Shown here piece after piece: positions 4,620 through 63,173 of a stretch of DNA of 64,000 nt. Origin of the DNA: Convolutriloba macropyga. Lineage: Eukaryota. Numbering within the stretch: the first letter of the stretch is position 1; each line of letters opens with the position of its first letter. The DNA lies in contig NC_134475.1 in the NCBI RefSeq assembly GCF_964194025.1, positions 66,588,001 to 66,652,000 of the forward strand. The letters are read 5' to 3'. The notes beneath the pieces are model-generated. The model saw only the letters and a list, made by a program, of their open reading frames with translations. It was not told where the DNA came from and made no database searches. The translations under genes were made by a program, and so were the position numbers.

Positions 4620-6373
4620 AATTTAGTTTATACTTCAAAGGTAAGTGTGGTAACACAATTTTATAAAAGAAAGTTTTCCGCGAAGTTAGCTGAACTTCCG
4701 GTAACTACATATAACGCTTTAAAAAAAAAGAAAACATTGAATTCCAAAATGTTACACACCTTAAAAGTATCAACAAAATGGCAATGTACAAATTCTAAAA
4801 TACATAAAACAATAAGAATATATTTTATTTACAACGTTTGGAATACTAAAAACATAGAAAAAATATATTGGATATTAAGGAAATTAAAAACAATGAAAAC
4901 TTAATAAAGGTCCCTAAACAAATCTCTGTACTCCAATGCCTTTGGGTCCTTCAGATATTCCTTGAAATAGAATTCTTTCAAAAAACCTTTGATGTTTTTA
5001 ACCTTATCGAGTTTTTGTCTTTGTTCATATGGAAATTCATTGTAGAATTTCATGGCTTGCAGCATCAATGATTTATCGAGGAATTCCGAATTACTTTTCA
5101 TAGCAGGATAACTTTTTCCCGTTCTCGCATTCTGTTTACAATTGGAAGATTGCAATACATTGTTGTTACTAAAAGCTGGTAATTGTTTCCTAACATATTT
5201 CAAGAAAAACACCATATATCGATATTTGAGAAGGAATTCAACAGGCATGATTCTGTTTTTTATTCTTAAATCATACTTTTTTCTTTTGAAACACACTTCT
5301 ATTCCCCAATTAAGTTGTTTTTCTAATGTTATCATGAGATTTGTTCTGATATCAACGAGCATAAAAGATGAGTATTGAATGTGACTTAAAACAAGCGCGT
5401 TCAATAGTGTTACTCTAGTTTTTATAGGAAAACAGTTCTTTATATTTTTCAAGAATTTGATGCTGCAGGCCATTCTGGAGAGTATTCTTTTGATCTCTTC
5501 TTTAAAGTTTAATTTGTTGTCTAATATTATTCCTAGATATATTACCGACGACGATTCTCCTATGTTCACATCGATAACATTGAGATAAGACGGAGTTCGT
5601 GCTTTTTTGATGGAGCAAACACGATATATTCTGTCTTCTTATTGTTCATCATTAATTGATGTGATTGGAAATAATAACATAGTTTTTCAATATTTTTTTC
5701 CAAATATTTTCTGGCTATATTTTCATTAGCATGAGAAGAATAGAGAAAAGTGTCATTGGCGTTTTGGATTACTTGACAATTGTCATTATCAATAGCTCTA
5801 TGATGATCATTCACATAAATGTTGAACAATATTGGTCCTAATACTGTCCCTTGTGGCACACCTCTTAAGTAAAATCCAGTCGGACTCATTTCCCGAGAAA
5901 ACTACTTTTTGAGTTCTGTCTTTCAAATATGATCTAATCAATTGTGTAGATGTTCCGTCGAATCCTAAACATTTCAATTTTTCTATTAGTATTTCGTGTG
6001 AGATTGAGTAAAATGCTTTTGAGAGATCGAAGAATGCTCCACAAACTGTATTCTTTTATCCATTTCAGTTCTTACATATTCTGTACATTGTAGTATGGCA
6101 TCTGTTGTGGACAATTTTTTCCTATATCCAAACTGTTTAGGTTACAGCGAGTTATTTGAGGTCAAATAGTCATTAATTTGGTTGCTTATAACTTGCTCAA
6201 AGATTTTTGCCAATGCGCCGGTTACTGATATTGGACGATAGTTAGTGGGATCTTCTGTGTTTCCTTTTTTTGTAAAGAGGTGAGACCAAAGCTCTTTTGA
6301 GGTCAATCGGAAAAGAAGACTCAGAAATAAACTCGTTTAATCAGAAATAAACTCGTTTAATCAGAAATAAACT
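4620..6373 (-). mobile_element. 5'-truncated, decayed non-LTR retrotransposon (CR1/L2-group LINE) RT region plus 3' UTR
   Basis: The minus strand encodes ..PLYKKGNTEDPTNYRPISV.., KQFGYRKKLSTTDA, DLSKAF, GVPQGTVLGPILFNIYVND, a degraded YADDT (NANDT) and YLGIILDNKLNF, with frameshifts and stops. Confidence 0.85.
6321..6373. repeat. 20-bp tandem repeat (TCAGAAATAAACTCGTTTAA x2.6) at the LINE 5' truncation point
   Basis: Exact copies at 6321 and 6341, and a partial copy at 6361. Confidence 0.9.
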
Positions 6374-11839: not shown

Positions 11840-14800
11840 AAAAAAGATATTCTTAACTTCAATCAGACATAAAGTGACAGTCCTTCGAACAACCAAATGA
11901 GTGAGAGTTTCGTAGAGATTACTACTCAAGTGGAACTAGGGAAAAGAAACAGACCGGCTTAAAAATTGAGTGAATATCGCGTTCCGCGGATACTCTTGAG
12001 CAGTCGCATTTAATTTGGTTTGCCGACTTGCCGGACATCAACAACAATACGAACAGCATCGAAACTGCAACTTTGTTTTGTGGACCAACGGAACTAAGCA
12101 ACAGCAGCCGCTAAAAGACCAAATAGACAATAATAATCAATTGATTCCAAGGGAAATAGTCAACTCAAGATATTAGACAAAAGGCAAGTTTACCTACTCA
12201 GTTCGTTTTCGAGACAACCTTCCCAATCAGAAGGCTACCTAACATAAACAAAACAAAAGCTTAACGTGATTTCTTCGAGACTAAAGATTGAAAAAATGAT
12301 CACATACAGCCACAGATGCTATGATTAAAATTAAAAAAAAAATTTTTAGAAGTGAGATAATCACTCCGGACGCATGTTGGCAGAAAAAAGTGAAGTCTTT
12401 CAATGGGTAAATGAAAACATACCAAATCACGGAGATATTGAAGAACATCGTATACTACTTGTCGACCGTTTTCAATACACATTGCGGGTCCGCAATCTAA
12501 TGAAAAAGAGTCACTCAAACAGCATGAAATGGCAGATTTGAAAAAAGCGTTGAGAACAGAGAATTCAGATAAGTCTCATTAAGAAAGATGATTTGACAGT
12601 TTGGCACAGTGCGCAAGAAAACTGGATGAAAATTGTTCATAAATGGTTTAGTCATTGAAGACAGATTTTTGATTTGAAGGGTTTGGGAACCTCTGTGACA
12701 AGAAAAAGGATTATCCGGTCTTGGTCACACATTGCGGGCTTATAAAGGATTTGGGAAACCAGTCATCTCCAGTGACAGCCACAATAAATAGCAAAAAATT
12801 CAAATCAGACCGTAATAGGCAGGTACAACAACCCATCAAAATTAAACTGATGAAATGCTCAGGTTTCTTCCCGTGGTCATGCTACCAATTGGATTAAAAA
12901 AGAACTCAGTGTTGCAAAGTCGCACTGGTCGAATTAACTTAAAGTCCTGCATATAAAATTTTTAAATCGCTTTGTTAAACAACAAGCAGAGGAACTGTGA
13001 AACTGAACAAGAAAAAAGAGGGAAAAATTAAGCTTCGACTGCAACAAAAGGAATGCGAATTACGTCTGCAACAGCAGTAACAAGAATTACGCGTGCAACA
13101 GCAACAACGAAAACAAGAACTCCGTCTCCGACAACGATTGCAGGAATTCGATATCGAACAAACAAAAGCAGAAGCAGAGAAACAGCAGCAACAGCTCCAG
13201 ATTGAACTGGAAGAGGGAATCTGACGACCAACGTGATCTGCTATAGACGTTGAAAGCGGTCAGGAAACAGGAAACTACAAAAACAAAGGGCAAAATTAAT
13301 ACCCGAAACATTGTCCTTTGCTCAACCACTGCCTCTATATGTGAGCAAGCAATTTTCAAAAATAGTCAGTTAGCGGGACTAACAAGAGAAGATATTCAGT
13401 CTTACCGGGGTTTTCCACAGCATTCAATACACGTGCACAGGGCTTCTTAGTTTCGATGTGAGGTCTGATCAGTCATCAATTTCAGCATGGTACATCAAAG
13501 ACATTCAGAGTGACAGATCAGCAAAAAGATTTCTCTAAGCAGACAACTCATCTCCAAGAAACATTAACTTTTCTAACCAGAATCGGAGACAAAGTTGCAC
13601 ACACAATTCTTGCTACGGATTTGCCGAGAGCCGTGAAAGAAGCACAGTGAACCAAATCAATCCCCCAAGTCATTTGACTACACGGAATGAGCTTGTTTAC
13701 AGTGGCTTGTCACAAATCAAACTGGCTGAGTTTTTGGGCATCTATTTGGGTCGCCAGAGTAGTTTGGTTGATGAGTCGTTTTTCATCGAAAAAAATTCAG
13801 CAATCCTGAAAAGAAGCAATTTTTGAAGAGTAGTGTCACGGGTCAAACAGAAGCACGAATATGAACTTTTGAATTCATTTCACATTCCTATAATCAAGAT
13901 TGGGATCTACTTTGCTATACGTATGGTAGATCAATTTTAATAGAAGACGCAGAGCTCAAAAAATATATAAAATCATCCTCGAATGCGGCTCCACATCACC
14001 ATCAACTTTGCAAGACTGGTTACAATGGCGGTGAACACGTTAAATTGTTTTGGATACACATCCTACCTATAATCAAGATGCGCGCTGAGTTCTAAAGAAA
14101 TTGTCTCCCCCTTTGAGAGAAGAATAGTTTTGGTTGCTTCAATAAAGGTGACTACTGAGAGATTTTGCGGTTCAAAAGCAGTTATTCTTAAAAATTTGTT
14201 GGCGTAGACAAACTCATAGTTTGAGAGACATAAATTCCAAAGTTGCAATAAACTGAACAGGAGCTTTTTCTGTTCATACGCTGAAGACTCAAGCAATTCC
14301 ATTATATCGAAAGTCTTTTAAAAGACGAACGGCTAAAAACTCGGTTTGAGATCAGTTCAAAACTGTGAAATTAATTGAACCGCGAGAACGTGTCTGGACT
14401 TTTTGACTGTGCCTAAACTCTTGCAATCAGGTCACCTATTCAAGGTCTGCAAAAATTTTGGGAAAAGTTCAAATGAATTGAAACAAATGAACTGCAAGAA
14501 CTTGTCCGGAAACTTTGAGTGTGTCTAAACTCTTGCAAACAGGTCACCTATTCAAGGTCTGCAAAAATTTTGGGAAAAGTTCAAATGAATTGAAACAAAT
14601 GAACTGCAAGAACTTGTCCGGAAACTTTGAGTGTGTCTAAACTCTTGCAAACAGGTCACCTATTCAAGACTGCAAAAGCAAGACCTGCAGTTTCCCTATC
14701 TGCAGAGGGCGACACAGAAAACATTAGCATTGAGATTTCTCTAGTAAAAAAGCCAGAACGAGTGTCTCAGACGCTACAACATCAGGCAATGAGTACTCTC

Positions 14801-20300: not shown

Positions 20301-21742
20301 TTTAAACTCCTTAATGGTAAGCTGGGAAAAAGTTGCACCACATACTCTTACATATATAAGGAAAGCAAAAATAGTTGTTATGTGTTGGTGTGATTTTTGT
20401 GACGGCTGACTCCGAGATATTTATTTGTGTTATCTTAGCACTAACCTCTCTTTCCCTCTCTCAGAGTAAAAATGGGGAAAAGTTATCTTCCTTTTCCCTT
20501 CCGTCCCCCCACTACCCTAGTCCATATTTTCCATGCTAATTTTGCAAGCAGAAATTGATAAGGTAACAAATTTGACAGGAGGTTTGAAAAGAGAAATACA
20601 AAGTTCTCTTTCTCTCTTACCCAAACTCACTTTTTTAGCTTCGCGTTGTTCAGTGCATATTTTGCTCAATATTATTTCATTACTACACTTAGTTAGTTTT
20701 TCAAAAAAAAATTCATTTATCAATCAAATAGTGTCAGGACAAAATACCCAACGCCAAAATGCCCAGAATGTACCCAATATTTTACCATACATCAAATTAT
20801 CAGAAAATTATCTAAGCTAATTGTACCTAAGAGACATAAATTATAGTATCGTTTTTTGTTTGAAAAACGAACACAGGGTAACCAGCGGCCTCGTTACTCT
20901 GTAATGTGACTCGATTTTATATAGTCACAAGCAAGCATGAGATCATATATTTTGTCATTGGGTAAAAAATCATTTAACAACTAAATTATGATATATTGCT
21001 CTAACCCTGTCATTATAGCCCAGATTCGTGATTAGTCTACGCTCGGAGGAGATTTAATCAGATAACGGATTAGGTGTACATTTATTTGTTGGAACCCTCT
21101 GCGCTTATTTTTACAAAGCGACTGTCAATTGAATTCAAACGTCGGCCATTATTTATCCAACCCAATTTGTTCTATTTAACTCGCTCTATCTCATTCACAA
21201 TTTTATGTCTTTTCTGCAACAAATTACAAAGCAGGTTATTCTGTTAAATAAACCCAAAGCTGTCATTTTACGTGCTTCTGGCGATTCAAAGAATCTTCCT
21301 GGAGTAATTCGTAAAAATATTTGAAAGGGACAAAACCTAGTTTGAACCTTTTGAACTGGAATCTCTCAAAACAGCCTTTTATAGCTAACAGAGCAAAGCG
21401 TCGTAAACCAGCTAGTTATAACACCTTTTATAACGACCGCAGATTAATAACCAGCTCCAGAAAGGGTTAAGGCAGTAACTGATATTGTGTACTACCAAAA
21501 AGAACCAATAGAAATTAACTGTAAAACCCAAATTTTACAACCCTGTTTCCCACTTTTACGTCAAATTTGGTTATATTTAACCGATTTATTGGTTCGAGTT
21601 ATGAATTCTGCTATGAATTTGAGGCAATTTATTAAACAGGAACATCAAACTGAATAAATTTGCTTCTTATTATCTTATAATTTACCCGGTCATCCAAATA
21701 TTATTTTACAATTAGAGACTGATAGAGCCATAATTTGCCCAA

Positions 21743-23096
21743 ATGGTTAAAGAGAAGGTTAGTTTTCTTTGTGGCAACATTAAAAAGAATATCTTGCGCC
21801 GATCGGGCACTGTTGACAATTCGGCGCCCGGCTCACCCTCGATTGCCCGAAACATCACAAGCACTTCATCATTTGACAAAAACAACACGCGAACAAGTTT
21901 AGATGACTCACGTGAAGAAATTTTGTGTATTTTTGACAAATCTTTGACATTACAACATGACTCAGACGACATTTCGACATCTTTTGAAATTCCCCCCGAA
22001 CCCCCTCCGAGGATTTATTTCCCACAAGCACGATCACCAAAGTTGACGGGGTCTCACGGGGGCGAAAGAATAGAATCTGTTCAGTTGATTCAACCTGTAA
22101 TTGAAAGTGCGAATTCAAATAACCAACATGACGACAGAACTCCCTCAGAACATTCTAGATCAACGGCTAGTGAAATCTTCAGTCATCAAGCGCCGAGTAT
22201 TTCTTCAAGTCATTCGTCTAATTCTTCGACAGAATCGTTTCATTGTGATGGTTGCCATTGTTCTAGAAAATCATCGCAGCTTCATATAGCCACATGCAGT
22301 GGAACCCACTCACATTTGCATTATTCGAAACAGATTCCCAATTATAGTTACGATGAGTACTCTAAAACTACTTCAACTTCAAGTCATCAATCGGTTTCAA
22401 TCGGAAGTTCCGACTCCTTAGACATCGGGAGTCTAGCTGCCGAACACAGTTACTCAGCCGCCCACCAAAACCGACTCTCAACCACGGACTCGATTCTCCC
22501 CCCGAGAATTAAACCTTCGGCTTTGGGTTCTTGCAGTCGTCCCGATGGTCGGCGGCGTAGCGGGTGCATCGCATCTCAACCTCAGTCGAAGAAAACGCCA
22601 TCGCCTCAACCACCCCCATTTTTACCCCCTAAGAATTTCATACCCTCCACATCGTCATCGGGTAAAAAATGCGAATGCGCAAATTGTAGATTATCGTACG
22701 TTTCATCTTCAAAGAATTCAAACAGCTCAAATCCAACGCAAGCTTGTGATACATTTTCTATAATTGACCGAAATTCGACGATCGAAAGCTTAAACATGAC
22801 GCCCTGTACGCCTAAACGAAATGCCAGATTGTGCGAAAGGAAGGTTCCGAAAGATTGTCCAGAGTATGAAAACCATTTGGAAAACTCGAAGCCTAGCGAT
22901 TCAAGCTGGCCTGAAATAGGCGAAGTAGTCCCGACAGTTTCAGCCTTTTTGCAAAGCAAGAATTGCAGCAAAAGACGAAGTTCGTTTTCAAAAAGTTTCG
23001 ACAAAGTTCCGCTGAGTTTAACAGTCCACGAAGTGTTTCAAGGTGCGGAATTTGATTCATTTTCACCGAAACTTCCCTTTTCAGAACAGATTTCAG
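21743..23096 (+). CDS. SOCS7-like gene, first coding exon (Ser/Pro-rich disordered N-terminus)
   Basis: A 452-aa ORF, very long for this AT-rich background. The acceptor TTACAATTAG ends at 21715 and there is an in-frame upstream stop. The donor CAG|GTTAGT is at 23097 (phase 1). Motifs include PPEPPPR, PPFLPPK and YEN. Confidence 0.7.
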
Positions 23097-24449
23097 GTTA
23101 GTTTTCAATTGAACGCTTTTCGGAATCTTTTTCCTTACTTTTTGTAGTTGAAAGTCATAATAAACAGATGTGATCATTAATAATGTAACTTGTAAGATTT
23201 GCTTCCGGATTCTTCTTAACAAAACAGTTCTTCTTTATGTTCAATATATTTATTCCGCAGACAACACGTTGAAGAAAAAAAATTGAGAATTAGTTTTTTG
23301 AACTATTAATTTTTTGTGGGTCCACGAAGTTAAACAATGTCTTAGTATCAAATTGTACAATAAGAGCTAATATAGAAAAAGTTTCTGGAGTCTTGGAAAA
23401 CTATTTAACTGTTTATCCTTTTATTGCTACAATAGCTTGATTGTTAAAAAATGAGCAAAATTTTTGCAAAATTTTTAGGTCATAAACTACTTCTAGACTG
23501 TTTTCTCGTAGAGATGCAATTAAGAACTAAATTTGATTCGAAATTAACAGTCAATTAGTTTTTGTGCTATAAAAGTTTACGTGAATCTTTATTTTGACAA
23601 CAATCGACTTATAATAAAATTTCTTCCATAACAATAGCATTGACAATTCTACATTTAAGTAACTCAGCTTTTGAATAGACATCAACCTATAATTTTGTGC
23701 TTTGAGCAGTACGTGATTCAAAATTTTTCTTTTACCTTTCAATTGTCACTTCATGAGCAAAGCTCAAAATTCTACGCGTTGTTTGGACTCGGATTTTACC
23801 GTCTCAAATCTCCAAATTAAATCACCGCATTTCAAGAGCATAAAAACATCACTTAAAATGCAATTGTATTTATAGAATGTAATCAAAATATGGTAAAGGT
23901 TACATTTTTTTAAACCGTGGAGTTATTCTAAGAAAAATGGGAAATCCGTAACTTTTGATTTTGAAGACAACACAAGTTTGCTCAGAAATGGGTTGTCGCC
24001 AATTGCTATGAGTTCTTTAAAGCCTTTGAAAAATTACAGTCGATAAAATTATATTTTAAGTTCGGTCGCAAATAATGATAAAAAGTATTTGAATGATTTT
24101 ATAAAGATATTCAATCTGGTTTTACTGTCAACAAATGGCCATAAATTTGACACTTTGTTTTGCATAAATTTTTCAGTCTACGTAGCATTAAAACGAAAAT
24201 GGATGTTTCTTGGTTGTTTATTGATAACATTTGGTAGCTTTCAGTTAAATAGTGGATTTGAGAGATAGCACAAGCAAAAACTACATAATTTAAGAAAAAA
24301 TTGGCAAGCTTATAAGGTAGAATCATACGCGCGATCGTAATCTCTCTGTCTCAAATAACTTCATTTCATGGTGGAAAAAATTTAGGGCCGCTATTATCTA
24401 TGTGCAGCTATCATTCCCTAGTTGAGATCTAGACTTATGAAAGTAAAGT

Positions 24450-45550: not shown

Positions 45551-45780
45551 ACGAAATAGGTTCAGTTGAAAGTTATTTTGAAAGAAATAACGACAAAATT
45601 AAAGGATAATTGTTGTGTATTTTTGAAAGTTGTGGTGATTGACTGAGAAAGAAAATATGAGGAGTCCTCTTATTTTATTTTTTAATTCAATCAACACAGC
45701 TTTCAAAAATACACAACAGTTATCCTTTAATTTTGTCGTTATTTCTTTTTCAAAATAACTTTCAACTGAACGTATTTCGT
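45551..45780. repeat. 230-bp near-perfect palindrome (foldback)
   Basis: ACGAAATAGGTTCAGTTGAAAGTTATTTTGAAA.. mirrors ..TTTCAAAATAACTTTCAACTGAACGTATTTCGT around the centre GAGGAGTCCTC. Confidence 0.9.
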
Positions 45781-49513: not shown

Positions 49514-51228
49514 TTTGAAAATAAGAAACATTAATATTGCATATAGTGACGCAATATTGATAAAATAAATAACTAAATCCCTAGTTGTAAAACGTTGCAA
49601 TGGGGCCAAGAGGAAAATACTGTCTGAAAACTCAAAAGTGTAAAAAGAAACAGTGACACTTATTTAGCATTTGGTAAGAGCCATCTTAGTACTGAGAGGT
49701 TCCAGCGGGAACAAATGAGAAATCAATTGTTGCGTAAAGACGAAAAAACGGAAAACGAAAAAAAATTAAACACTAAATCTGTGTATTAGGTTTTCTGGGA
49801 GTAAATTACGTATAGTAAGGACACCCATCAAACGTTTTAAAATTTTAAAACTAAATGCAAATTTGAAAAAAATATACTGGAGACATGCTCAAAAGTAAAA
49901 CCTATATCATGGCTTAATGATTCCTTGGTATAAAAACTGGGAGGCAAATTTAAAACAACCGATGTTGGACAAATCCACAATGGGCTAATTATGATTACTC
50001 ATGAACAAATTTGTCTTTGAAGAAATTTGTTACGCTTATGCTGGAGTAAAATCTTGAAAAAACTGCTGAACATTTCTGTTAAAGGTTTCAATTTTTTTAA
50101 CGGTTTTATGGTTTCAAAATTGATAGTGCCAGTTTTTTATTACTCAGAAAAAGTGATAACATTTTTGCTTCAAAGCAAAAGAATTATTCATTTATTTGAA
50201 AAAATTCAAAAAATTCGATATACAAAAATTACTTCTGAGAAAATTTCTGCTGCAGAACAGTCGGCAGTTAATTTTTGAGTCATTAGACTGGCCTTCAATA
50301 AAACAGAAATTATTTTAAAAAACTATTGAATATTTGTTATTTTAGGAATGCTTTTCATTTGTTTAATTTCGTAAAAACATAAAAAGCATTCATTTAAAAA
50401 CACTTTTTTTGACAGTCTGTAACTGCATTTAGCCATGCTTTTTTAAAGAAAAGTCCAGTCACTCAGTGTACCAAAATATAAATCTGTAGTTTAGTGAGTC
50501 AGAAATCCATTTGACGGAAACAAATTCTTTACTAAATTGTACGAGAGGCAGAAATATAATATCTGAAAACGCGGTTTATGGCGATCAATTTCTTTTTATG
50601 ACAAGAGAATATTGGATGCAAGTTCGTCTGCAACCTTATAAACAAAGTTGTCTCAAAATGTAATTGTTTATAAACATTTACCAGATGATGTTACTTTATT
50701 ATTGTAACCATAAGAGAACGAGTTTGGATTTGATTTATTCCTTCATTTTTAAAACTAATTAGATAACGTTTTTTTTCCATTTTAGGACATTTATTGGTAC
50801 TACACAATTCTTGCTATGCTTTAGTTTTGTTGTTTCAACTTTTGTACCTTTGACAAAAACTTGGTCCATAACCGTCAGAATATTAAACAACCTTGGGAAC
50901 TTCCCAAAAAGATGTGGAATGGGGATTCTGAGAAAATATGAATAGAGTTAATTATTTTTCATCACTCAAAAGATAAATATAAAAAATAAAGTTTTTCAAA
51001 ATTAAGACAACAGAAAACGTTCATTATAATTGCAATAATCTTTGAAAACTGAAAAAAATGTTCGCTCTCGTATATATCACAAAAGTGGTTACAAGGTATA
51101 AGCTGCAAAAAAATGTTCTATTTTTTACATTCTGCTTAGGGGATGGCAAAGAGTTTCTTTGAAAAGAATTTTCTCTCAAATTTTTAATTTTTGATGCGTG
51201 CAAAATTTAAATTTTTTTGGTAATTTTG

Positions 51229-52384
51229 TGTAAAATTTGTGAAAACCTACTTTTTCTCGCAAAATGTCGCAATAAAAATGGATACAACTTGAAATTCAAA
51301 AATCGGTCCTAAACAAGTTGTTAGCATCTATAATGGCTTGCATTTGAACACCATTTGGTGAATCGAATGTTGGTGGGACAAATTAAGGTGGATTTGAAAG
51401 TTGAGTAGGTAAAATAGTGATTTTCTGGGGGTGACCGAATTTATAAAAGTTAGTTATGATTCGGAATTTACCTCAACATGCTCAAACTTGATAGGGAGTT
51501 AGTGCATACCTTGAGGCAAGTTCCGCTGTTGTCAATTCCAGGGAATTTGTTTTAGAGATACCATGGGGGGAACTTTAGACTTCCAAATAAGGCTTAGATT
51601 CTTGAGTTCATAGTTTGACCGGTTGATTAATTGGTAGCGTCACGAGTCTGATACGGCTTTTGTGTTAGTTTAAATAGCTTAAGTAGAAGTCAGCAATGTA
51701 TAAAGAAGGCGTTCAGGTCATTCAATTGTTCTTTTAAAGTCATAACGAACTCTACGTAAGTGAGGACCATTTGTTGTCCATAGCAGCGGTTTGAACAAAG
51801 TTGTTGTTCACGCGTTGTAATACGTCGTGATTCGAGTAGTTGCCAAGAGGGAGTAAACCAACATGGTTGTTGTTGTGGCAGCAGAGCTATAGAAGGCTCC
51901 AAATAACTCTGACATCGTAGAGGAGTTCAACTTAAGTAATAAAAAAGAGAGAGAAGAGCTGTTGTGAAGTGAAGTTGGTCTTTCTTGATAGAAGAAAGAC
52001 TTTTGTAAAGAATATCGAGAGCCAAGAACGAGAGATTCGTGAGGCTGATATCAGAGCAGATAACTTTACTTACTCAGTTTGATTTAGAGAGTTTGGGATC
52101 TTGTGATAAATTCCATTATCTTAATTTGAATTAATTTCTGTTGCTTAAAACCCAAATTGATTTATTCTTGATTCTGTTGATTTATACTATCAAATTATAT
52201 CAATTTATCTTTGAGCAACCGAGTTGAGTCAATTTATCTTTGAGCAACCGGAGACAGAGCAAGCCGGGGACACCGTGAGTAAACTTTGTAGAAAACCTTT
52301 CCACCAAAATAAACCTTTCAAGTTAGGATTTCGGGTGGTAGTGTCTCCCCGCCTATTAACCTAGTCTAAATACGAAATTCTACA
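51229..52384 (+). repeat. 5' LTR (1156 bp)
   Basis: Starts TGTAAAATTT and ends AAATTCTACA (9/10 inverted termini). Near-identical to 62029-63173. Contains a TATA-like TATAAAG (~51699) and AATAAA (~51938, ~52308). Confidence 0.97.
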
Positions 52385-52385
52385 G

Positions 52386-52403
52386 TGGCGCTCCTGGGTG
52401 GGC
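52386..52403 (+). promoter_or_regulatory. Primer binding site, tRNA-Asn-like (TGGCGCTCCTGGGTGGGC)
   Basis: Lies 1 nt after the LTR. Its reverse complement GCCCACCCAGGAGCGCCA resembles the ..GCCCACCC(A/G)GG..CG-CCA 3' end of animal tRNA-Asn(GTT). Confidence 0.75.
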
Positions 52404-52496: not shown

Positions 52497-53525
52497 ATGA
52501 ACGAAAACGAAAGACAGCTTTTTGCGGAGGCTGTGGTCGTGGCTCAAAACCAGTTGGCGGTTAACAACACAGCTGGCAGGCCCGAAAAGTTCCCGTCGGC
52601 GTTGTTTCCCGATTGGTTTTCATGGAAAGCCCACTTTTCATACCTCATGGACAAACATGGTTGGACGGATGAGCAGGCTCGAAGCACAATACCTACCCTT
52701 CTTGTTGGTTGGGCGATGCAGGAGTTTAATGCCATGCCCCGACACTATCGAGTTCAGGAGCAAGACCAACCCGCTCCCACTCTGGCAAGAATGATGACGT
52801 ACTTGGACCCGAGGATGTCACCCTACAGGAATCCGAGGACAGCGAGAACAGAGTTCAAGAACTTGGCCCAGGGTGAGAAAGAGGATATTCGAGAGTTCTC
52901 CAGACGGGTGAGGTCGCTTGGGGAAATTGCCAATGCCACCATGAATGCAGCTACGAGGGATAACATGAACCGAGAGCAGTTCATCGATGGGCTGTTTGAT
53001 CTAGAGATACAGGAATTGCTTCTGCGGGAGGACCCCAACACGTTCAATGATGCTGTTGATAGGGCCCTTAACATCGACGCAATCAGTCGAGGATCCAGAA
53101 TGAGGCAGCGCAGGCGGTTGACAACCACCAGGTACCTTCAACAGTCAGACCAATTCGTGGAAAGACATCATGTTCAAGCTGTGAGTGGACAAATGGAACC
53201 CGACATGATGAAGGTAGAAATGGACGAGATGAAGAAACAAGTAAAGAATCAGGCAGACATGATTAAAGGGATGTCCGAAATGATGACTAAATTTGTCAAT
53301 TCGGTAATCCCCGGACCACCGAAAGAAACAACAGGAGATCAGGACGGAAATCCGCGCCGATTGTTCAACCCGTACCCCGAAACCAGCCGCTACGGCCAGA
53401 ACTTTGGCAGCACCGATAGGAAGCAGTCTGGGACCTTAAAGCAAGGAGTCCGCTGCTACAATTGCTCTAAGATGGGACACTACGCGCGGGAATGCAACGA
53501 ACCAAAACAGAACCATTTAAACTAA
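52497..53525 (+). CDS. gag: Gag (capsid plus one CCHC zinc knuckle), 342 aa
   Basis: Gypsy-type capsid motifs (DWFSWKAHF..HGW, Q.EKEDIREFSRRV, EQFIDGL) and CYNCSKMGHYAREC. Confidence 0.95.
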   Translation: MNENERQLFAEAVVVAQNQLAVNNTAGRPEKFPSALFPDWFSWKAHFSYLMDKHGWTDEQARSTIPTLLVGWAMQEFNAMPRHYRVQEQDQPAPTLARMMTYLDPRMSPYRNPRTARTEFKNLAQGEKEDIREFSRRVRSLGEIANATMNAATRDNMNREQFIDGLFDLEIQELLLREDPNTFNDAVDRALNIDAISRGSRMRQRRRLTTTRYLQQSDQFVERHHVQAVSGQMEPDMMKVEMDEMKKQVKNQADMIKGMSEMMTKFVNSVIPGPPKETTGDQDGNPRRLFNPYPETSRYGQNFGSTDRKQSGTLKQGVRCYNCSKMGHYARECNEPKQNHLN

Positions 53526-55705
53526 GACGGGCCGGGAGTCTCCAAGGATTTAGGAAAGAAGGTTTCATCCCGGCCGAAAACAAGCAAGATTCAACTAATA
53601 ACCGTGACACTTTAAACGATATAGAAGCAGTCAACAAACTACCGGAACCACGGTTTCTCAAACCCAAAGTTGCAGTGAAGGGGGAACCAGACAAACGAAC
53701 TGGAAGTATTACAGTTACGGGGGAGGTAAATGGGACTCCAATAGAGATTTTGGTGGACACAGGAGCTTCAACCAATATGATAAGATCTTCCACATTTGAC
53801 CAACTTAAGGAACCGCGAAAACTGATGCGGTACCGTGGACTACTGGAAGCAGCTGACGGTCGGTATGTAAACGTTACAGGATCAGCAACAATTCATCTCA
53901 AAATGGGTGGTATTGATGACGAGTGTGAAGTCCTTATAATTGACGGACTCAAAACGGAAATGATTCTCGGACTCAGGGATCTTCAAAAGCATAATTGTGT
54001 AATCGATTTGCAGGCCAACCAATTGTGGACAGCCCCAGTGGAGTCAGCTATAATACCGTTGAACAGCGGAAAATTGTGGGGAACTTCGCAGAATGGTAAC
54101 ACGAAGCCGACACATAAAGCCGAAACGAGAGAAGCGGTCCACCAGATCCTGGAAAAAGTTGGCAAGGAAGACCAAGTAGAGGTTATGATGGCCTCTGGGA
54201 GTATCTACGATGAGGATGGTGAGCATGACGACAACTTAGGACCTAACAGAGAAGAGGAAGAGGAGACCTTAGCTGAAGGGGCGATTAGAGGCCAACAAAA
54301 CTTATGTCTAAATTCAGGGGATGAGGTCAAGATGCAAGCTGGTGAAGATGTTGTTCCTCTAAATTCACCTGAACAGGAAGCCGAGCAAATTTTGAAGAAA
54401 TGTGCCCCGGAAGCACGAGGAGATCACTGGATAGCACTGCGGGACCTTGTCATCAAATACAGAGACGTGTTTGCCTTGGATGATTCCGAGCTGGGATCTA
54501 CCGCCGTGGTCGAGCATCGGATTGAAACGGGTAGCAGTAAGCCTATCAAGGTACCGCCACACCGAATCTCACCAGCTAGGATACCAATCATCCGGGAAGA
54601 AATTCGAAAAATGTTAGCGAGAGGGGTCATACAGCCATCAAGAAGTCCGTATAGTGCGCCAATCGTACTACAGAAGAAGAAAGACGGGAGCTGGAGGTTC
54701 TGTGTGGATTATAGGAAACTGAATGATGTCACTGTGAAGGATGCCTATCCGATGCCTAACCAAGCCCAAGTGTTTGATGCTCTGAGAGGAAATGCATTTT
54801 TCTCTTCTGTGGATCTAGCAAGTGGATATTGGCAAGTTCCTGTAGCCGCCGAACATAGACATAAGACCGCTTTTGTTACCCCAGACGGAGGTCTCTATGA
54901 GTACGTCCGAATGCCCTTTGGCCTGTCAAATGCGCCCGCAACCTTCCAACGACTTATGAACGAGCTATTTCAGCAGGGTCTCTACCAAACTAATCTCATC
55001 TTTCTGGACGATGTCCTCACCTATAGCAAGACGGCAGAAGATCACTTGAAGCATCTCGAAGAAGTGTTCGTGACGTTACGTAATGCAAATTTAAAATTGA
55101 AGCCGAAGAAGTGTCAGCTTTTCCAGAGACAGGTGGTGTACCTAGGTCACGTCATCGGAGTAGATGGAACGTCCCCCGACCCCGAGAAGACGTCAAAAGT
55201 TAAGGAATGGCCCGTTCCCAAGACAGTGAGAGATGTCCGGTCCTTTATTGGATTTGCTAACTACTGTCGAAGATTCATCAAGAACTTTGCAAGCATCGCC
55301 AAACCCTTGCATGATTTGACTAAGAAGAGTGCACGATTTGAGTGGACCCCAGCTCAGCAAGCATCTTTTGACCAGTTGAGATTAGAGCTGGTGACTGCCC
55401 CCGTTCTCCAGTACCCAGACTATTCAGGTTCATTCATTGTAGACACTGACGCCAGTAATGTTAGCATTGGGGCAGTACTTTCCAACGAAATCAATGGAGT
55501 GGATCGACCCCTGGTGTTTTCGTCACGAGTGTTAAGCAGGACAGAGATGATGTACTCGACCACCAAAAGAGAGGCTTTGGCGGTAATACAGGCCCTGAAG
55601 TGGTACCGACCATATCTGTTGGGTGTTCCATTCGTCCTAAGAACTGACCACGCCAGCTTGCGTTGGATGTTTCGACAGGACGCGGATGGGATGACTTTCA
55701 GATGA
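53492..55705 (+). CDS. pol: Pol part 1: aspartic protease, reverse transcriptase, most of RNase H
   Basis: LVDTGAS; RFCVDYRKLN, DLASGYWQV, MPFGLSNAPATFQ, FLDD; DTDAS..KREALA..TDH. Confidence 0.95.
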   Translation: MQRTKTEPFKLRRAGSLQGFRKEGFIPAENKQDSTNNRDTLNDIEAVNKLPEPRFLKPKVAVKGEPDKRTGSITVTGEVNGTPIEILVDTGASTNMIRSSTFDQLKEPRKLMRYRGLLEAADGRYVNVTGSATIHLKMGGIDDECEVLIIDGLKTEMILGLRDLQKHNCVIDLQANQLWTAPVESAIIPLNSGKLWGTSQNGNTKPTHKAETREAVHQILEKVGKEDQVEVMMASGSIYDEDGEHDDNLGPNREEEEETLAEGAIRGQQNLCLNSGDEVKMQAGEDVVPLNSPEQEAEQILKKCAPEARGDHWIALRDLVIKYRDVFALDDSELGSTAVVEHRIETGSSKPIKVPPHRISPARIPIIREEIRKMLARGVIQPSRSPYSAPIVLQKKKDGSWRFCVDYRKLNDVTVKDAYPMPNQAQVFDALRGNAFFSSVDLASGYWQVPVAAEHRHKTAFVTPDGGLYEYVRMPFGLSNAPATFQRLMNELFQQGLYQTNLIFLDDVLTYSKTAEDHLKHLEEVFVTLRNANLKLKPKKCQLFQRQVVYLGHVIGVDGTSPDPEKTSKVKEWPVPKTVRDVRSFIGFANYCRRFIKNFASIAKPLHDLTKKSARFEWTPAQQASFDQLRLELVTAPVLQYPDYSGSFIVDTDASNVSIGAVLSNEINGVDRPLVFSSRVLSRTEMMYSTTKREALAVIQALKWYRPYLLGVPFVLRTDHASLRWMFRQDADGMTFR
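53516..53575 (+). promoter_or_regulatory. -1 programmed ribosomal frameshift signal
   Basis: Slippery heptamer T TTA AAC (53516-53522) immediately before the gag stop, a 7-nt spacer, then the stem GGCCGGGA (53530-53537)/TCCCGGCC (53568-53575). Pol is in the -1 frame. Confidence 0.85.
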
Positions 55706-57768
55706 TTCAGAAGCTTCAGGAATTTGACTTCATGTTTGTGCACAGAGCAGGCAATCAACATGGCAATGCTGACGGTTTATCAAGACGCACGTCAGAAGAA
55801 CCAGACTGGGCTCCCGGGGAGAGAGAAGAATTGACTGGTAGTTGTCCTGAGCCTGTTTCCCTAGAAGTGGCTTTGGCAAGAACCCGAGAATCCTGTGGAA
55901 TGATCCGAGAAGAAGTGGGAGGAGGCGCCGACTCGGAGGAAGATGCACTGGATGGTCAAGCAATAGTTTGGAGTAGAGAGACGCCTGATGTAGAGAAAAT
56001 GCAGCAGGAGGACGAAGCTATTAGCAGAGTTTTCCTGTGGCTTCCCTATAATCCGGGAGGAGATCTTGAGAGTTTTGGTTCCAACTTAGTGACGCGAGAA
56101 GAAGCAGTGCAGCATGGGCCCGAAGTATTGGCATATTGGTCTAGATGGAACGAACTCACCGTGAGGAAAGGCATCCTCTACCGGCGATGGTATTGCTGGG
56201 ACGGAAAACCCCCAATACTTCAAATCGTTGTTCCCGTAGTGGGCCGGAAGGAAATTCTTGATCAGTTGCACGCATCCCCAGTCAGTGGGGGGCACTTTGC
56301 TGTAGAGAAGACGTTAAGGAGAATCCGCCAACGTTTCTGGTGGCCACACATGAGACAAGATGTTGAAAAGAAGCTAGCGTGGTGTCTGCCGTGTGCAGCT
56401 AGGACTACAGCTGGGAGGAAGAGGATTGGAGGACTTGTGCCATTTAAAGTTGGGATACGATTCCACACGGTTGCAGCAGATATCTTGGGTCCAGTTACGA
56501 TGGCCAACGAAACGCGAGCCAAGCACATATTAGTCATGACAGATTTGTTCACGAAGTATGTGGTCAGTGTCCCATTGAAGGGTACTGAAGCACCCGATGT
56601 AGCAAAAGAGATTGTGGAAAGTTGGATTTTGCGATTTGGTGTACCTGACGTACTTCACACGGATCAGGGAAAGAACTTTGGGAGTGAGCTCATGCTGGAG
56701 GTCTGCAGGCTGTTGAAAATTGATAAAACTAGGACCTCACCATATCACCCTCAAGGCAACGGGCAAGTGGAGAGGCACAATCGGGTGATTGCCGATGTCA
56801 TCTCGAAGTATTGTGCGGACAACCCGCGAACATGGGATAAACTGTTACCCTATTTAAGTTTTATTTACAACACCACAATTCACAGGACTACACAAGCAAC
56901 TCCTTACAGCCTTGTGTATGGACAGGAGTGCCAGTACCCCATAGACTTATTCTATCCAAAGCCCCACGACGAAGAACTTACAAGAGACAGCTTTGCGGAG
57001 GATTTGTCACGCTTATTCAGAGAGGCTCATGCATCCGCTAGGGAATCTCTAGGAGTAAACCAGAGGAGGCAGAAGGATCAATACCACAAGAAAGTCTATG
57101 GGAAACCATATGAAAAGCAGGACAAAGTGTGGGTTTACTCAAAGCATAAAGCAAAATCTCGGAAGTTCTTCCTACCGTGGGAGGGTCCTTATGTAGTTTT
57201 AGAACGAACATCGGAGGTTAATTACAAAGTAGCGAAACCAAGTCAAATGGCAAAATGGAGGATACTACACTACAATATGCTCAAACCGTACCTGGAGGAA
57301 GGCGATGCTTGGAGCCCAAAGGAAAAGAAGAGGACTACGGCTCCCAGGTCCGAAGGGTTTCTTGAACATCCAGGCGTAGATCAAGACGAGTGGGAAGAGG
57401 AGGGATTCGATCTACGCCCAACAGAGCAGAATGCCAGGATGCGACGCCTTGTACAGAGAAGGGAACGAAATGAAGGGGTTGAGGAGGACGTGCCGAATTT
57501 GGAGGAACTGTTTCACGAGCAAGTTGTAACGGAACCAGCCAGGGTACCGGAGGAAATTCCAACTGATGGGGGCAGGCTGGAAGCGCCAGTAACTGCTGAC
57601 GATGCACGAGTAGAGTCACCTCTTCGTGAACCAGGGCAACTAGCCCAAGCCCAGCCATCGGGTGTTCCTGAACCTAGGGAGGTAACAGTAGTCTCTCAAG
57701 ATACGGGACCTGCAAGACGACCCAGACGAGAGATCCGCCCAGTCATTCGGCTGGGTATTGACGAATAA
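55702..57768 (+). CDS. pol: Pol part 2: RNase H end, integrase (HHCC, DDE, GPY/F) and acidic tail; separated from part 1 by a 1-bp frameshift
   Basis: IQKLQEFDF..HRAG..HGNADGLSR; H..GGH..CLPC; ADILGP, TDQG, YHPQGNGQVER; WEGPY. Confidence 0.93.
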   Translation: MIQKLQEFDFMFVHRAGNQHGNADGLSRRTSEEPDWAPGEREELTGSCPEPVSLEVALARTRESCGMIREEVGGGADSEEDALDGQAIVWSRETPDVEKMQQEDEAISRVFLWLPYNPGGDLESFGSNLVTREEAVQHGPEVLAYWSRWNELTVRKGILYRRWYCWDGKPPILQIVVPVVGRKEILDQLHASPVSGGHFAVEKTLRRIRQRFWWPHMRQDVEKKLAWCLPCAARTTAGRKRIGGLVPFKVGIRFHTVAADILGPVTMANETRAKHILVMTDLFTKYVVSVPLKGTEAPDVAKEIVESWILRFGVPDVLHTDQGKNFGSELMLEVCRLLKIDKTRTSPYHPQGNGQVERHNRVIADVISKYCADNPRTWDKLLPYLSFIYNTTIHRTTQATPYSLVYGQECQYPIDLFYPKPHDEELTRDSFAEDLSRLFREAHASARESLGVNQRRQKDQYHKKVYGKPYEKQDKVWVYSKHKAKSRKFFLPWEGPYVVLERTSEVNYKVAKPSQMAKWRILHYNMLKPYLEEGDAWSPKEKKRTTAPRSEGFLEHPGVDQDEWEEEGFDLRPTEQNARMRRLVQRRERNEGVEEDVPNLEELFHEQVVTEPARVPEEIPTDGGRLEAPVTADDARVESPLREPGQLAQAQPSGVPEPREVTVVSQDTGPARRPRREIRPVIRLGIDE

Positions 57769-60736: not shown

Positions 60737-61021
60737 TTATTCCTTTCTGCGGTTGGGGAACACAACTCGTGGTCTCAGATCATCTAGTAAGCTTATGACA
60801 TCCCACGAGCTATTCAACTGACCCGAATTAAATAGGCCTTCGACCAAGCTGAGAAATTCGTAAGTCTCGTATGTGCTGAACATTAAGCTATCAATTGAGT
60901 CAGGGTCAATGACAATAGTAAACTCGTAATAATTTGTGGGACTTTCCTGAATTTGAATATTAGAAAATCCCTCCCCAACCAAAGTTTCTAACGCCGGAAT
61001 GTAATATTTGGTGTCGGTCAT
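60737..61021 (-). CDS. Antisense accessory ORF-A, 94 aa, unknown function
   Basis: ATG-to-TAA ORF inside the element, with globular-looking acidic/aromatic composition and a basic C-terminus (RPRVVFPNRRKE). No homologue recognised. Confidence 0.5.
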   Translation of the reverse strand: MTDTKYYIPALETLVGEGFSNIQIQESPTNYYEFTIVIDPDSIDSLMFSTYETYEFLSLVEGLFNSGQLNSSWDVISLLDDLRPRVVFPNRRKE

Positions 61022-61405
61022 TTGTATTTGTTTTGCTGTGATAAGATATAAGGTGTTGTTTACAATGAAAGCTTTGGAACAATGAGATATTTAAACAGTA
61101 GAAGTCAAAATAAGCACGCGTTGGTTGTACAAAGAAGTGATTTCTGTTCATTTTTTTGCTGTTGAAAACTAATGAGCTCTATTCAGCTTTGAGTTGATTG
61201 TTCTGCAAGCAATTACTAAAGACTAATGAGATTCAAGAAGAACGAAACTGGTGTAAGTGACCGAGGAGAGGATAAACTGTGTGGAGAATGAGAAAATCAG
61301 AAAGTAGACAATTCATTTTGGTTCTCTTTATCGTAACGCTAAGTTCAGTAACTTAGGCTTCAGAAAGTTGAAGAGTGAAATTATAACAGCCAACGCCCGT
61401 TCGTG

Positions 61406-61855
61406 ATGGATCTAACAATGTACCCGGTGATCCCCGAATACCATCCGGATGAGTTCGAGGATGAGGAGAAATGGGTGTGGGAGTCCTTTATGTTGGGACT
61501 GAGGTTACGAATCAAAATGATCCGTGTGTCCTTCCACTATCTGATAGTGGAGTTGAGGGAAGACGGTGGATTTGTCCTTCTGGAGGAGGGGAGTGGCCCA
61601 TGGCACGAGCTGAGGGGCTTCCTATCGAAGGATTGGTCGGCCAATTCCAGTGAGATTGCAGAGGAGGGCGATGGAGCTAGTTCCTTCCATCCAAGTGTTG
61701 GCTCAGAGAGTATCGATTCGCTGAGGGTGGGGTCTACCGACAGGCTTACCAGCTACTCCTCCTACTTCGAAGAGCTATCGACGGAGTCGGAGAGTGGAGG
61801 AGTTTTTGAACTAGAGTCTATTTCCAGCGAAGATGACTGCGTTTTTGTCAGCTAA
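61406..61855 (+). CDS. Sense accessory ORF-B, ~149 aa acidic Ser-rich protein, unknown function
   Basis: ATG at 61406 (alternative ACAATG start at 61418). A GC-richer block coincides with the ORF, which ends ~170 nt before the 3' LTR. Confidence 0.6.
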   Translation: MDLTMYPVIPEYHPDEFEDEEKWVWESFMLGLRLRIKMIRVSFHYLIVELREDGGFVLLEEGSGPWHELRGFLSKDWSANSSEIAEEGDGASSFHPSVGSESIDSLRVGSTDRLTSYSSYFEELSTESESGGVFELESISSEDDCVFVS

Positions 61856-62016: not shown

Positions 62017-62028
62017 AGAAGGGAGGAG
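62017..62028 (+). promoter_or_regulatory. Polypurine tract AGAAGGGAGGAG
   Basis: Directly abuts the TG of the 3' LTR. Confidence 0.9.
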
Positions 62029-63173
62029 TGTAAAATTTGTGAAAACCTACTTTTTCTCGCAAAATGTCGCAATAAAAATGGATACAACTTGAAATTCAAA
62101 AATCGGTCCTAAACAAGTTGTTAGCATCTATAATGGCTTGCATTTGAACACCATTTGGTGAATCGAATGTTGGTGGGACAAATTAAGGTGGATTTGAAAG
62201 TTGAGTAGGTAAAATAGTGATTTTCTGGGGGTGACCGAATTTATAAAAGTTAGTTATGATTCGGAATTTACCTCAACATGCTCAAACTTGATAGGGAGTT
62301 AGTGCATACCTTGAGGCAAGTTCCGCTGTTGTCAATTCCAGGGAATTTGTTTTAGAGATACCATGGGGGGAACTTTAGACTTCCAAATAAGGCTTAGATT
62401 CTTGAGTTCATAGTTTGACCGGTTGATTAATTGGTAGCGTCATGAGTCTGATACGGCTTTTGTGTTAGTTTAAATAGCTTAAGTAGAAGTCAGCAATGTA
62501 TAAAGAAGGCGTTCAGGTCATTCAATTGTTCTTTTAAAGTCATAACGAACTCTACGTAAGTGAGGACCATTTGTTGTCCATAGCAGCGGTTTGAACAAAG
62601 TTGTTGTTCACGCGTTGTAATACGTCGTGATTCGAGTAGTTGCCAAGAGGGAGTAAACCAACATGGTTGTTATTGTGGCAGCAGAGCTATAGAAGGCTCC
62701 AAATAACTCTGACATCGTAGAGGAGTTCAACTTAAGTAATAAAAAAGAGAGAGAGAAGAGCTGTTGTGAAGTGAAGTTGGTCTTTCTTGATAGAAGAATG
62801 ACTTTTGTAAAGAATATCGAGAGCCAAGAACGAGAGGTTCGTGAGGCTGATATCAGAGCAGATAACTTTACTTACTCAGTTTGATTTAGAGAGTTTGGGA
62901 TCTTGTGATAAATTCCATTATCTTAATTTGAATTAATTTCTGTTGCTTAAAACCCAAATTGATTTATTCTTGATTCTGTTGATTTATACTATCAAATTAT
63001 ATCAATTTATCTTTGAGCAACCGAGTTGATTCTGAGCCGGAGACAGAGCAAGCCGGGGACACCGTGAGTAAACTTTGTAGAAAACCTTTCCACCAAAATA
63101 AACCTTTCAAGTTAGGATTTCGGGTGGTAGTGTCTCCCCGCCTATTAACCTAGTCTAAATACGAAATTCTACA
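62029..63173 (+). repeat. 3' LTR (1145 bp)
   Basis: Near-identical to the 5' LTR and followed by the TSD TTTTG. Confidence 0.97.

Follow-up and report, generated by a model that had tools for sequence, protein, structure and literature searches.

The env-bearing Ty3/gypsy element described here carries, between env and its 3′ LTR, two small head-to-head ORFs that are very probably real accessory genes maintained by selection. The region that holds them is a modular cassette, whose contents differ across a clade of sister families, rather than a fixed gene pair. A first interpretation made from the DNA alone (the sequence-only reading) had proposed a two-gene accessory module. The accessory genes stand, but the fixed pair does not, since family X keeps a homologue of one gene, ORF-B, without the other, ORF-A, and in family Y the layout recurs with proteins unrelated to A and B. 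The element lies in a 64,000-nucleotide stretch of the Convolutriloba macropyga genome, referred to as the window (Table 1).

Table 1. Features of the element carrying ORF-A and ORF-B, and env-to-LTR ORFs of three sister families. Positions are those of the window unless a locus (L number) is given.
Feature	Position	Strand	Remarks
5′ LTR (TG...CA)	51229..52384	+	preceded by target-site duplication TTTTG at 51224-51228
Primer-binding-site-like stretch, begins TGGCG	52386..52402	+	position and TGG start read from the sequence
gag, CCHC zinc knuckle	52497..53525	+	zf-CCHC E = 6e-6
pol (protease, RT, RNase H, integrase)	53492..57768	+	frameshift near 55700 in the window copy
env-like gene, 774 aa	57878..60202	+	Baculo_F E = 0.51; dN/dS 0.15
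ORF-A, 94 aa	60737..61021	-	between env and polypurine tract/3′ LTR
Non-coding spacer, 384 bp	61022..61405	.	candidate divergent internal promoter
ORF-B, 149 aa	61406..61855	+	second in-frame ATG at 61418
Polypurine tract	62017..62028	+	
3′ LTR	62029..63173	+	TTTTG directly after
Family X, B1 (+, 185), B2 (+, 102), C (-, 136)	L112:3101-4727		env-to-LTR
Family Y, F (-, 115), G (+, 148)	L117:3176-3622 (-) and L117:4046-4393 (+)		env-to-LTR, head-to-head, 423-bp gap
Family Z, I (+, 200), B3 (+, 95)	L125:3668-4730		env-to-LTR

The element is a complete and young env-bearing Ty3/gypsy element. It displays the marks of this class of LTR retrotransposon (TG...CA LTRs, a target-site duplication, a primer-binding-site-like stretch, and a polypurine tract), its pol domains follow the Ty3/gypsy order, and its reverse transcriptase is about 48-49% identical to its closest named relatives, which are pol proteins of invertebrates. 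The two LTRs differ by 5 mismatches and 15 gap columns, and the 3′ LTR contains no ATG-initiated ORF of 45 aa or more. A frameshift separates RNase H from integrase at 55690-55710, yet the LTRs are 99.6% identical over aligned positions; pol occupies one unbroken frame in several other copies. By eye, the env-like protein contains a basic site followed by a hydrophobic stretch, as well as a C-terminal membrane-like segment. Its match to the Baculo_F glycoprotein family falls below the cut-off, and a PDB sequence search with it returned no match.

The window contains further features outside this element. Broken gag-like frames with a Cys/His knuckle on the minus strand (1-1760) probably belong to another LTR element, BEL/Pao-like by eye, and a 245-aa minus-strand frame (4901-5638) resembles, again by eye, the C-terminal part of a non-LTR retrotransposon reverse transcriptase. 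A 455-aa Ser/Pro-rich open frame on the plus strand (21734-23101) is probably a host exon. A 112-nt tandem repeat in three copies (14345-14680) and a 75-nt inverted repeat with an 18-nt loop (45581-45748) are also present.

The positions, strands, and head-to-head arrangement of the two ORFs that the sequence-only reading had given were borne out, as was its view that neither is gag, pol, or env: both lie between env and the 3′ LTR, and neither matches a Pfam family at E ≤ 1. A DNA search of the 1.18-Gb host genome returned at least 52 matches, with 40 of 334 candidates scored. The copies form three classes: 13 are 97-100% identical, a second group 92-93%, and the older copies 68-84%. Counted in 29 of the 30 returned loci (L025 was left out), ORF-A is open in 12 of 13, 8 of 8, and 3 of 8 copies of these classes, respectively, and ORF-B in 12 of 13, 5 of 8, and 0 of 8. 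Among 20 further stretches with weaker matches, each that carries A or B also carries remains of the family's LTR, pol, or env. Where both ORFs survive in these stretches, the back-to-back layout persists, with LTRs that are about 65-70% identical.

Selection was assessed by mapping 41 other copies onto the window; with a tandem duplicate (L023) dropped and the window included, the alignment had 41 rows, some of them partial. Variants were classified relative to the commonest codon of each column and termed shared when present in at least three copies, and private otherwise. Private changes were taken as decay after insertion, and shared changes mostly as evolution during the activity of the family. 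In ORF-A, shared variants comprised 60 nonsynonymous and 42 synonymous changes (1 stop) versus 164 and 44 among private ones (11 stops), corresponding to dN/dS values of 0.55 and 1.43 (p = 1.4e-4). The figures for ORF-B were 78 and 61 (4 stops) versus 242 and 70 (15 stops), with dN/dS values of 0.49 and 1.32 (p = 4e-6); in both tests, shared variants are not phylogenetically independent and include recurrent mutations. The domain and the tail of ORF-B are each constrained (dN/dS 0.41 and 0.59). The env ectodomain, used as a control, is under strong purifying selection. When the threshold for shared variants was loosened to at least two copies, the signal in ORF-A became weak (dN/dS 0.83, p = 0.013).

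The reading frames bear the same signature. No column in the true frames has a stop as its commonest codon, whereas such columns number 6-9 for A and 3-10 for B in the remaining five frames, and third codon positions are the most variable in both ORFs. Outside the true frames, a shadow of selection is confined to the frame on the opposite strand with the same third positions (A 0.76, p = 0.13; B 0.53, p = 6e-4). Neither A nor B nor env contains a shared indel, whereas the neighboring 1078 bp of non-coding DNA hold 38, with private indels at 81 versus 154 (p = 6e-7). The stop-free true frames, the few shared amino acid changes, and the lack of shared indels thus place both ORFs beyond chance. 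A dN/dS near 1 with random disruption, named in the sequence-only reading as the outcome that would speak against the pair, is not what the family as a whole displays: both ORFs are under purifying selection across the 41 copies. Like conserved additional ORFs (aORFs), A and B occur in most copies and are under purifying selection. Among the 21 youngest copies, shared nonsynonymous and synonymous changes number 9 and 1 in A, 8 and 5 in B, and 6 and 28 in env (A versus env, p = 6e-5), so that ORF-A has recently been either relaxed or positively selected, the counts being compatible with both.

Related families were collected through env searches (103 of 1646 candidates scored in one, 104 of 1291 in the other), and 38 stretches of other intact families were read. 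In a midpoint-rooted integrase tree, the window family (W) joins families V, X, Y, and Z with 98/97 support, apart from S and U; family T, too short for this tree, groups with S in the env tree, and both trees are restricted to this genome. Integrases across the clade families are still 68-79% identical. Further ORFs occupy the env-to-LTR interval in three sister families of the clade (X, Y, and Z), and all four sister families, V included, have LTR-internal ORFs. In S, T, U, and V, the interval from env to the polypurine tract holds no ORF exceeding the listing cut-off (60-95 aa, depending on the locus). The additional genes are themselves constrained, with dN/dS values of 0.21 for F and 0.17 for G in family Y (28 of 30 loci) and of 0.27 for B1, 0.31 for B2, and 0.29 for C in family X (24 of 30 loci), tandem neighbors having been dropped in both sets. 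B2 of family X and B3 of family Z are homologous (hhalign 91%). The head-to-head layout occurs in two families, W and Y, with different genes; the hhalign comparison relates neither F nor G to A or B.

The genes inside the LTRs form a second group. An antisense gene within the LTR is present in families V, X, Y, and Z (L111:5845-6390 (-), L112:721-1614 (+), L117:1783-2229 (+), and L125:2040-2480 (+)) and is homologous across the four families (hhalign 89-98%). It contains a domain like Integrase_H2C2 (in X, Y, and Z, with E from 1e-7 to 2e-4), which is followed, in the same or a separate ORF, by a Cys...His protease-like pattern that appears OTU-like by eye. The LTRs of family Y also contain a basic sense ORF of 108-111 aa (L119:2361-2687 (-), L130:2819-3154 (-), and loci L151-L180). 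Its start, MAR[TS]K[QN]T, is kept in 21 of 30 loci while the following residues diverge, and we take this start to resemble the N-terminus of histone H3. On this sequence likeness, the protein is a candidate histone-tail mimic; a PDB sequence search with it gave no histone match, and database searches supported neither the OTU nor the histone H3 likeness of the sister LTR ORFs. The window family lacks the antisense LTR gene and the other LTR ORFs of its sister families. Separately, locus L124 (G000:C2:17266000-17306000) contains a tandem array of four family-X copies; in these, a deletion has joined pol to the 3′ portion of env, yielding one long open frame of 1340 aa from its ATG.

ORF-B encodes an acidic protein (pI 4.2) without a membrane segment (maximal Kyte-Doolittle 19-mer score, 0.98). 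A domain of about 57 residues (aa 23-79), predicted to contain four strands and a helix, is followed by a tail (aa 80-149) that is acidic and Ser-rich by composition, with 16 D/E, 2 K/R, and 19 S among 70 residues. The domain has a homologue in B1 of family X (phmmer E = 3e-6 among 633 ORFs; hhalign 93%, E = 3e-7; 33% identical), and B1 likewise ends in an acidic tail. Sequence comparison with B2 and B3 is only suggestive of a relationship (hhalign E = 0.002, profile E = 0.014), with an almost gapless alignment of all of them. Database matches to ORF-B itself comprised nine close copies. A profile search for the B-type domain also returned nine matches, of which seven are domain members and two are repeat proteins that were rejected as such. 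Two of these domain members, P0014 and P0015, match this genome at only 32-47% and therefore come from another source, and B3-like proteins are present in another source.

A structural model of the ORF-B domain, computed from an alignment that included B2 and B3, reached a pLDDT of 75 (85-89 in the core). Structure searches with it gave no significant match (best Z 4.0, best Foldseek E 0.086), PC4/PUR-like, PH-like, and chemokine-like folds being the candidates considered. In ORF-B, no basic DNA-binding patch is apparent, unlike in a self-sufficient DNA-binding transactivator. Its tail may bear a likeness to SUMO-interacting and TFIIH-p62-binding motifs.

ORF-A is likewise acidic (pI 4.2) and soluble, with no membrane segment (maximal Kyte-Doolittle 19-mer score, 0.69). 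Its predicted fold, a helix, three strands, and two helices, is of low confidence (pLDDT 56), and structure searches with the model gave no significant fold match (best Z 4.1). As far as sequence comparison reaches, ORF-A is without a homologue outside its own lineage: hhalign probabilities were at most 1.1% against 18 other ORF groups, leaving no homologue in the sister families, and below 1% against the merged B groups. No paralogy between ORF-A and ORF-B is detectable, and an ESM Atlas search with both gave no usable match. Neither protein contains TRP28 (PF04195), the domain of the plant Retand/Grande antisense aORFs (Pfam, E ≤ 1), or the combination of a single transmembrane helix and a polybasic region typical of sORF2/FAST-like fusogens (hydropathy maximum below 1.0).

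The arrangement of the two genes constrains how they can be expressed. ORF-A lies on the minus strand and would need a minus-strand RNA, which upholds the earlier statement that it cannot be translated from an LTR-driven sense RNA. ORF-B would need a subgenomic 5′ end, as 18 ATGs lie between the env stop codon and its start. Were an antisense RNA from the 3′ LTR left unspliced, it would contain five ATGs upstream of A, two of which are conserved (present in 31 of 39 and 33 of 36 copies, respectively). The 127 nt preceding A and the 118 nt preceding B are free of ATGs, as are 100 and 140 nt in family Y, although runs of 118-140 nt are only weakly unusual; these runs would place the likely 5′ ends at 61022-61148 for A and at 61290-61405 for B. 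The spacer proved to be of the predicted size (384 bp against about 385), and its AT content of 64.6% exceeds only slightly the 62.4% between env and A and the 62.7% in the LTR. It is not additionally constrained (ratio of shared to private variants 0.42 versus 0.39 and 0.34 in other non-coding parts), shares no sequence with the LTR, and has no similarity to or alignment with the family-Y spacer (77 of 300 shuffles score as high). A 10-mer common to the regions upstream of B and of G in family Y was discarded as a shared motif because it is not conserved within the family. No conserved AATAAA was found downstream of ORF-A.

In the model that we prefer, transcription would start inside the 384-bp spacer in opposite directions. 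ORF-B, through its folded domain and acidic tail, would transactivate or de-repress the element in the manner of foamy-virus Tas, and ORF-A may, as a guess, be a fast-evolving factor that touches a host protein. The parts of this model differ in strength. A divergent internal promoter in the spacer is likely, with modest confidence, whereas the role of ORF-B as an acidic regulator is a guess from its anatomy that we regard as possible but doubtful. The combined reading, in which A and B are selected coding genes, likely transcribed divergently from the spacer, and B is predicted to be a small nuclear regulator acting via its acidic tail, appears to us evenly balanced.

Alternatively, both genes could be driven from the LTRs, with A expressed from an antisense promoter in the 3′ LTR as a spliced, HBZ-like RNA, B expressed from a spliced or trans-spliced sense RNA, and the spacer representing two leaders. 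LTR antisense promoters are known (PMC7264820), and a spacer without promoter-like conservation favors this route. A pyrimidine-rich sequence ending in CAG lies 14 nt before the ATG of A in young copies; such an acceptor site precedes 5 of 9 antisense ORFs in the clade versus 16% of background ATGs (p = 0.009, with a threshold set post hoc and genes that are not independent). However, the putative acceptors do not hold across copies, and the idea that either gene is preceded by a conserved splice acceptor was rejected: the AG before A is replaced by CAAC or AAAG in 13 of 16 other aligning old copies, CAG being kept only in L022, L023, and L096; the site before B reads AAG in 8 of 8 mid-age copies; and F of family Y has no AG acceptor. 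Conserved upstream ATGs would also block simple scanning from the LTR. Together, the ATG-free runs, the upstream ATGs, and the unconserved AGs weakly favor start sites in the spacer, and we consider LTR-driven expression of the pair somewhat unlikely.

The genes might also be expressed from the spacer yet act in counter-defense, as decoys or adaptors binding the host's silencing or immune proteins, and not as regulators of transcription. Such a role would fit the rapid turnover of unrelated small ORFs across the five sister families, the amino acid bias of the recent changes in ORF-A, and the sister LTR ORFs with an H3-like start or a protease-like pattern; those likenesses lack a database match, however, and the window family does not carry the LTR ORFs in question. 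This role is, in our judgment, unlikely. A status as passive passengers, or as frames that happen to be open in young copies, is very improbable for the two ORFs and already largely refuted. In the 21 youngest copies alone, the whole ORFs do not differ significantly from neutrality (A p = 0.67, B p = 0.34), and A has no outside homologue, but such an origin is at odds with the family-wide dN/dS, the codon periodicity, the absence of stop columns and shared indels, and the 33%-identical homologue of B.

Accessory genes of foamy viruses are known only from the sense strand, and HTLV-1 HBZ is, as ORF-A, an antisense gene downstream of env. Foamy-virus Tas combines an acidic C-terminal activation domain with an internal promoter, and this domain is reported to have little homology between viruses (PMC517496). 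The element resembles foamy viruses with their Tas/Bel1 and Bet proteins in having accessory genes, for which an internal promoter is proposed here, and the acidic C-terminus of Tas resembles the ORF-B tail in composition (PMC517496, PMC13220597). Foamy viruses, however, are Retroviridae rather than Ty3/gypsy elements, Tas binds DNA directly, and no sequence similarity of ORF-A or ORF-B to foamy-virus accessory proteins was found. HBZ is transcribed from an antisense promoter in the 3′ LTR (PMC7264820); in contrast, ORF-A lacks a bZIP or basic region, its start lies roughly 1 kb away from the LTR with conserved upstream ATGs in between, and a sense gene adjoins it back-to-back.

Among Ty3/gypsy elements, the closest parallels to ORF-A in position are the conserved plant antisense aORFs located before the 3′ LTR (Grande gene23, RIRE2, and Retand TRP28; PMC7264820, PMC11963269), and gene23 is described with a promoter upstream of the gene (PMC7264820). 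The element described here differs in having env and in placing a sense gene back-to-back with the antisense gene. With the metazoan "ancient errantiviruses" (PMC13524379) and the Tor elements (PMC4402516), it shares the gag-pol-env order and many near-identical copies, and env of Oikopleura Tor3b/4b is reported to be expressed from an internal promoter (PMC4402516). For those elements, unlike the present one, no post-env ORFs appear in the descriptions consulted, and the words "accessory" and "antisense" do not occur in the main text of PMC13524379, whose supplements may list such elements. Small selected accessory ORFs, sORF1 and sORF2, with sORF1 being nuclear, are described for the Drosophila MDG1 group; unlike the back-to-back A/B pair, both are sense ORFs and lie upstream of gag in env-less elements (10.1101/2025.03.14.642691). 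The bdelloid ORF3s are accessory ORFs in animal Ty3/gypsy elements as well, but encode env, esterase, or exonuclease (PMC5408684). A literature search that covered mainly open-access main texts found no description of the A/B pair or of the cassette.

The finding draws its main weight from a cassette that is modular, uses both strands, and extends over the clade. Customary depictions of env-bearing Ty3/gypsy elements show gag, pol, and env only; the families of this clade carry selected accessory genes on both strands, which have been gained, duplicated, swapped, and lost between families. Tentatively, and with more doubt than confidence, the clade may have independently evolved genomes of the complex-retrovirus kind, with as many as five accessory genes in an exchangeable cassette on both strands, placed in the env-to-LTR interval and within the LTR and expressed partly from internal divergent promoters. 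The cassette would include a new small-domain family of B and B1 (probably also B2 and B3), an H3-tail mimic, and an integrase-zinc-finger/protease-like protein, which together would regulate the element and counter chromatin silencing. The clade thereby offers a natural system for how simple retroelements acquire regulatory or counter-defense genes, as complex retroviruses did, and concrete candidates for transposon-encoded regulators of animal silencing.
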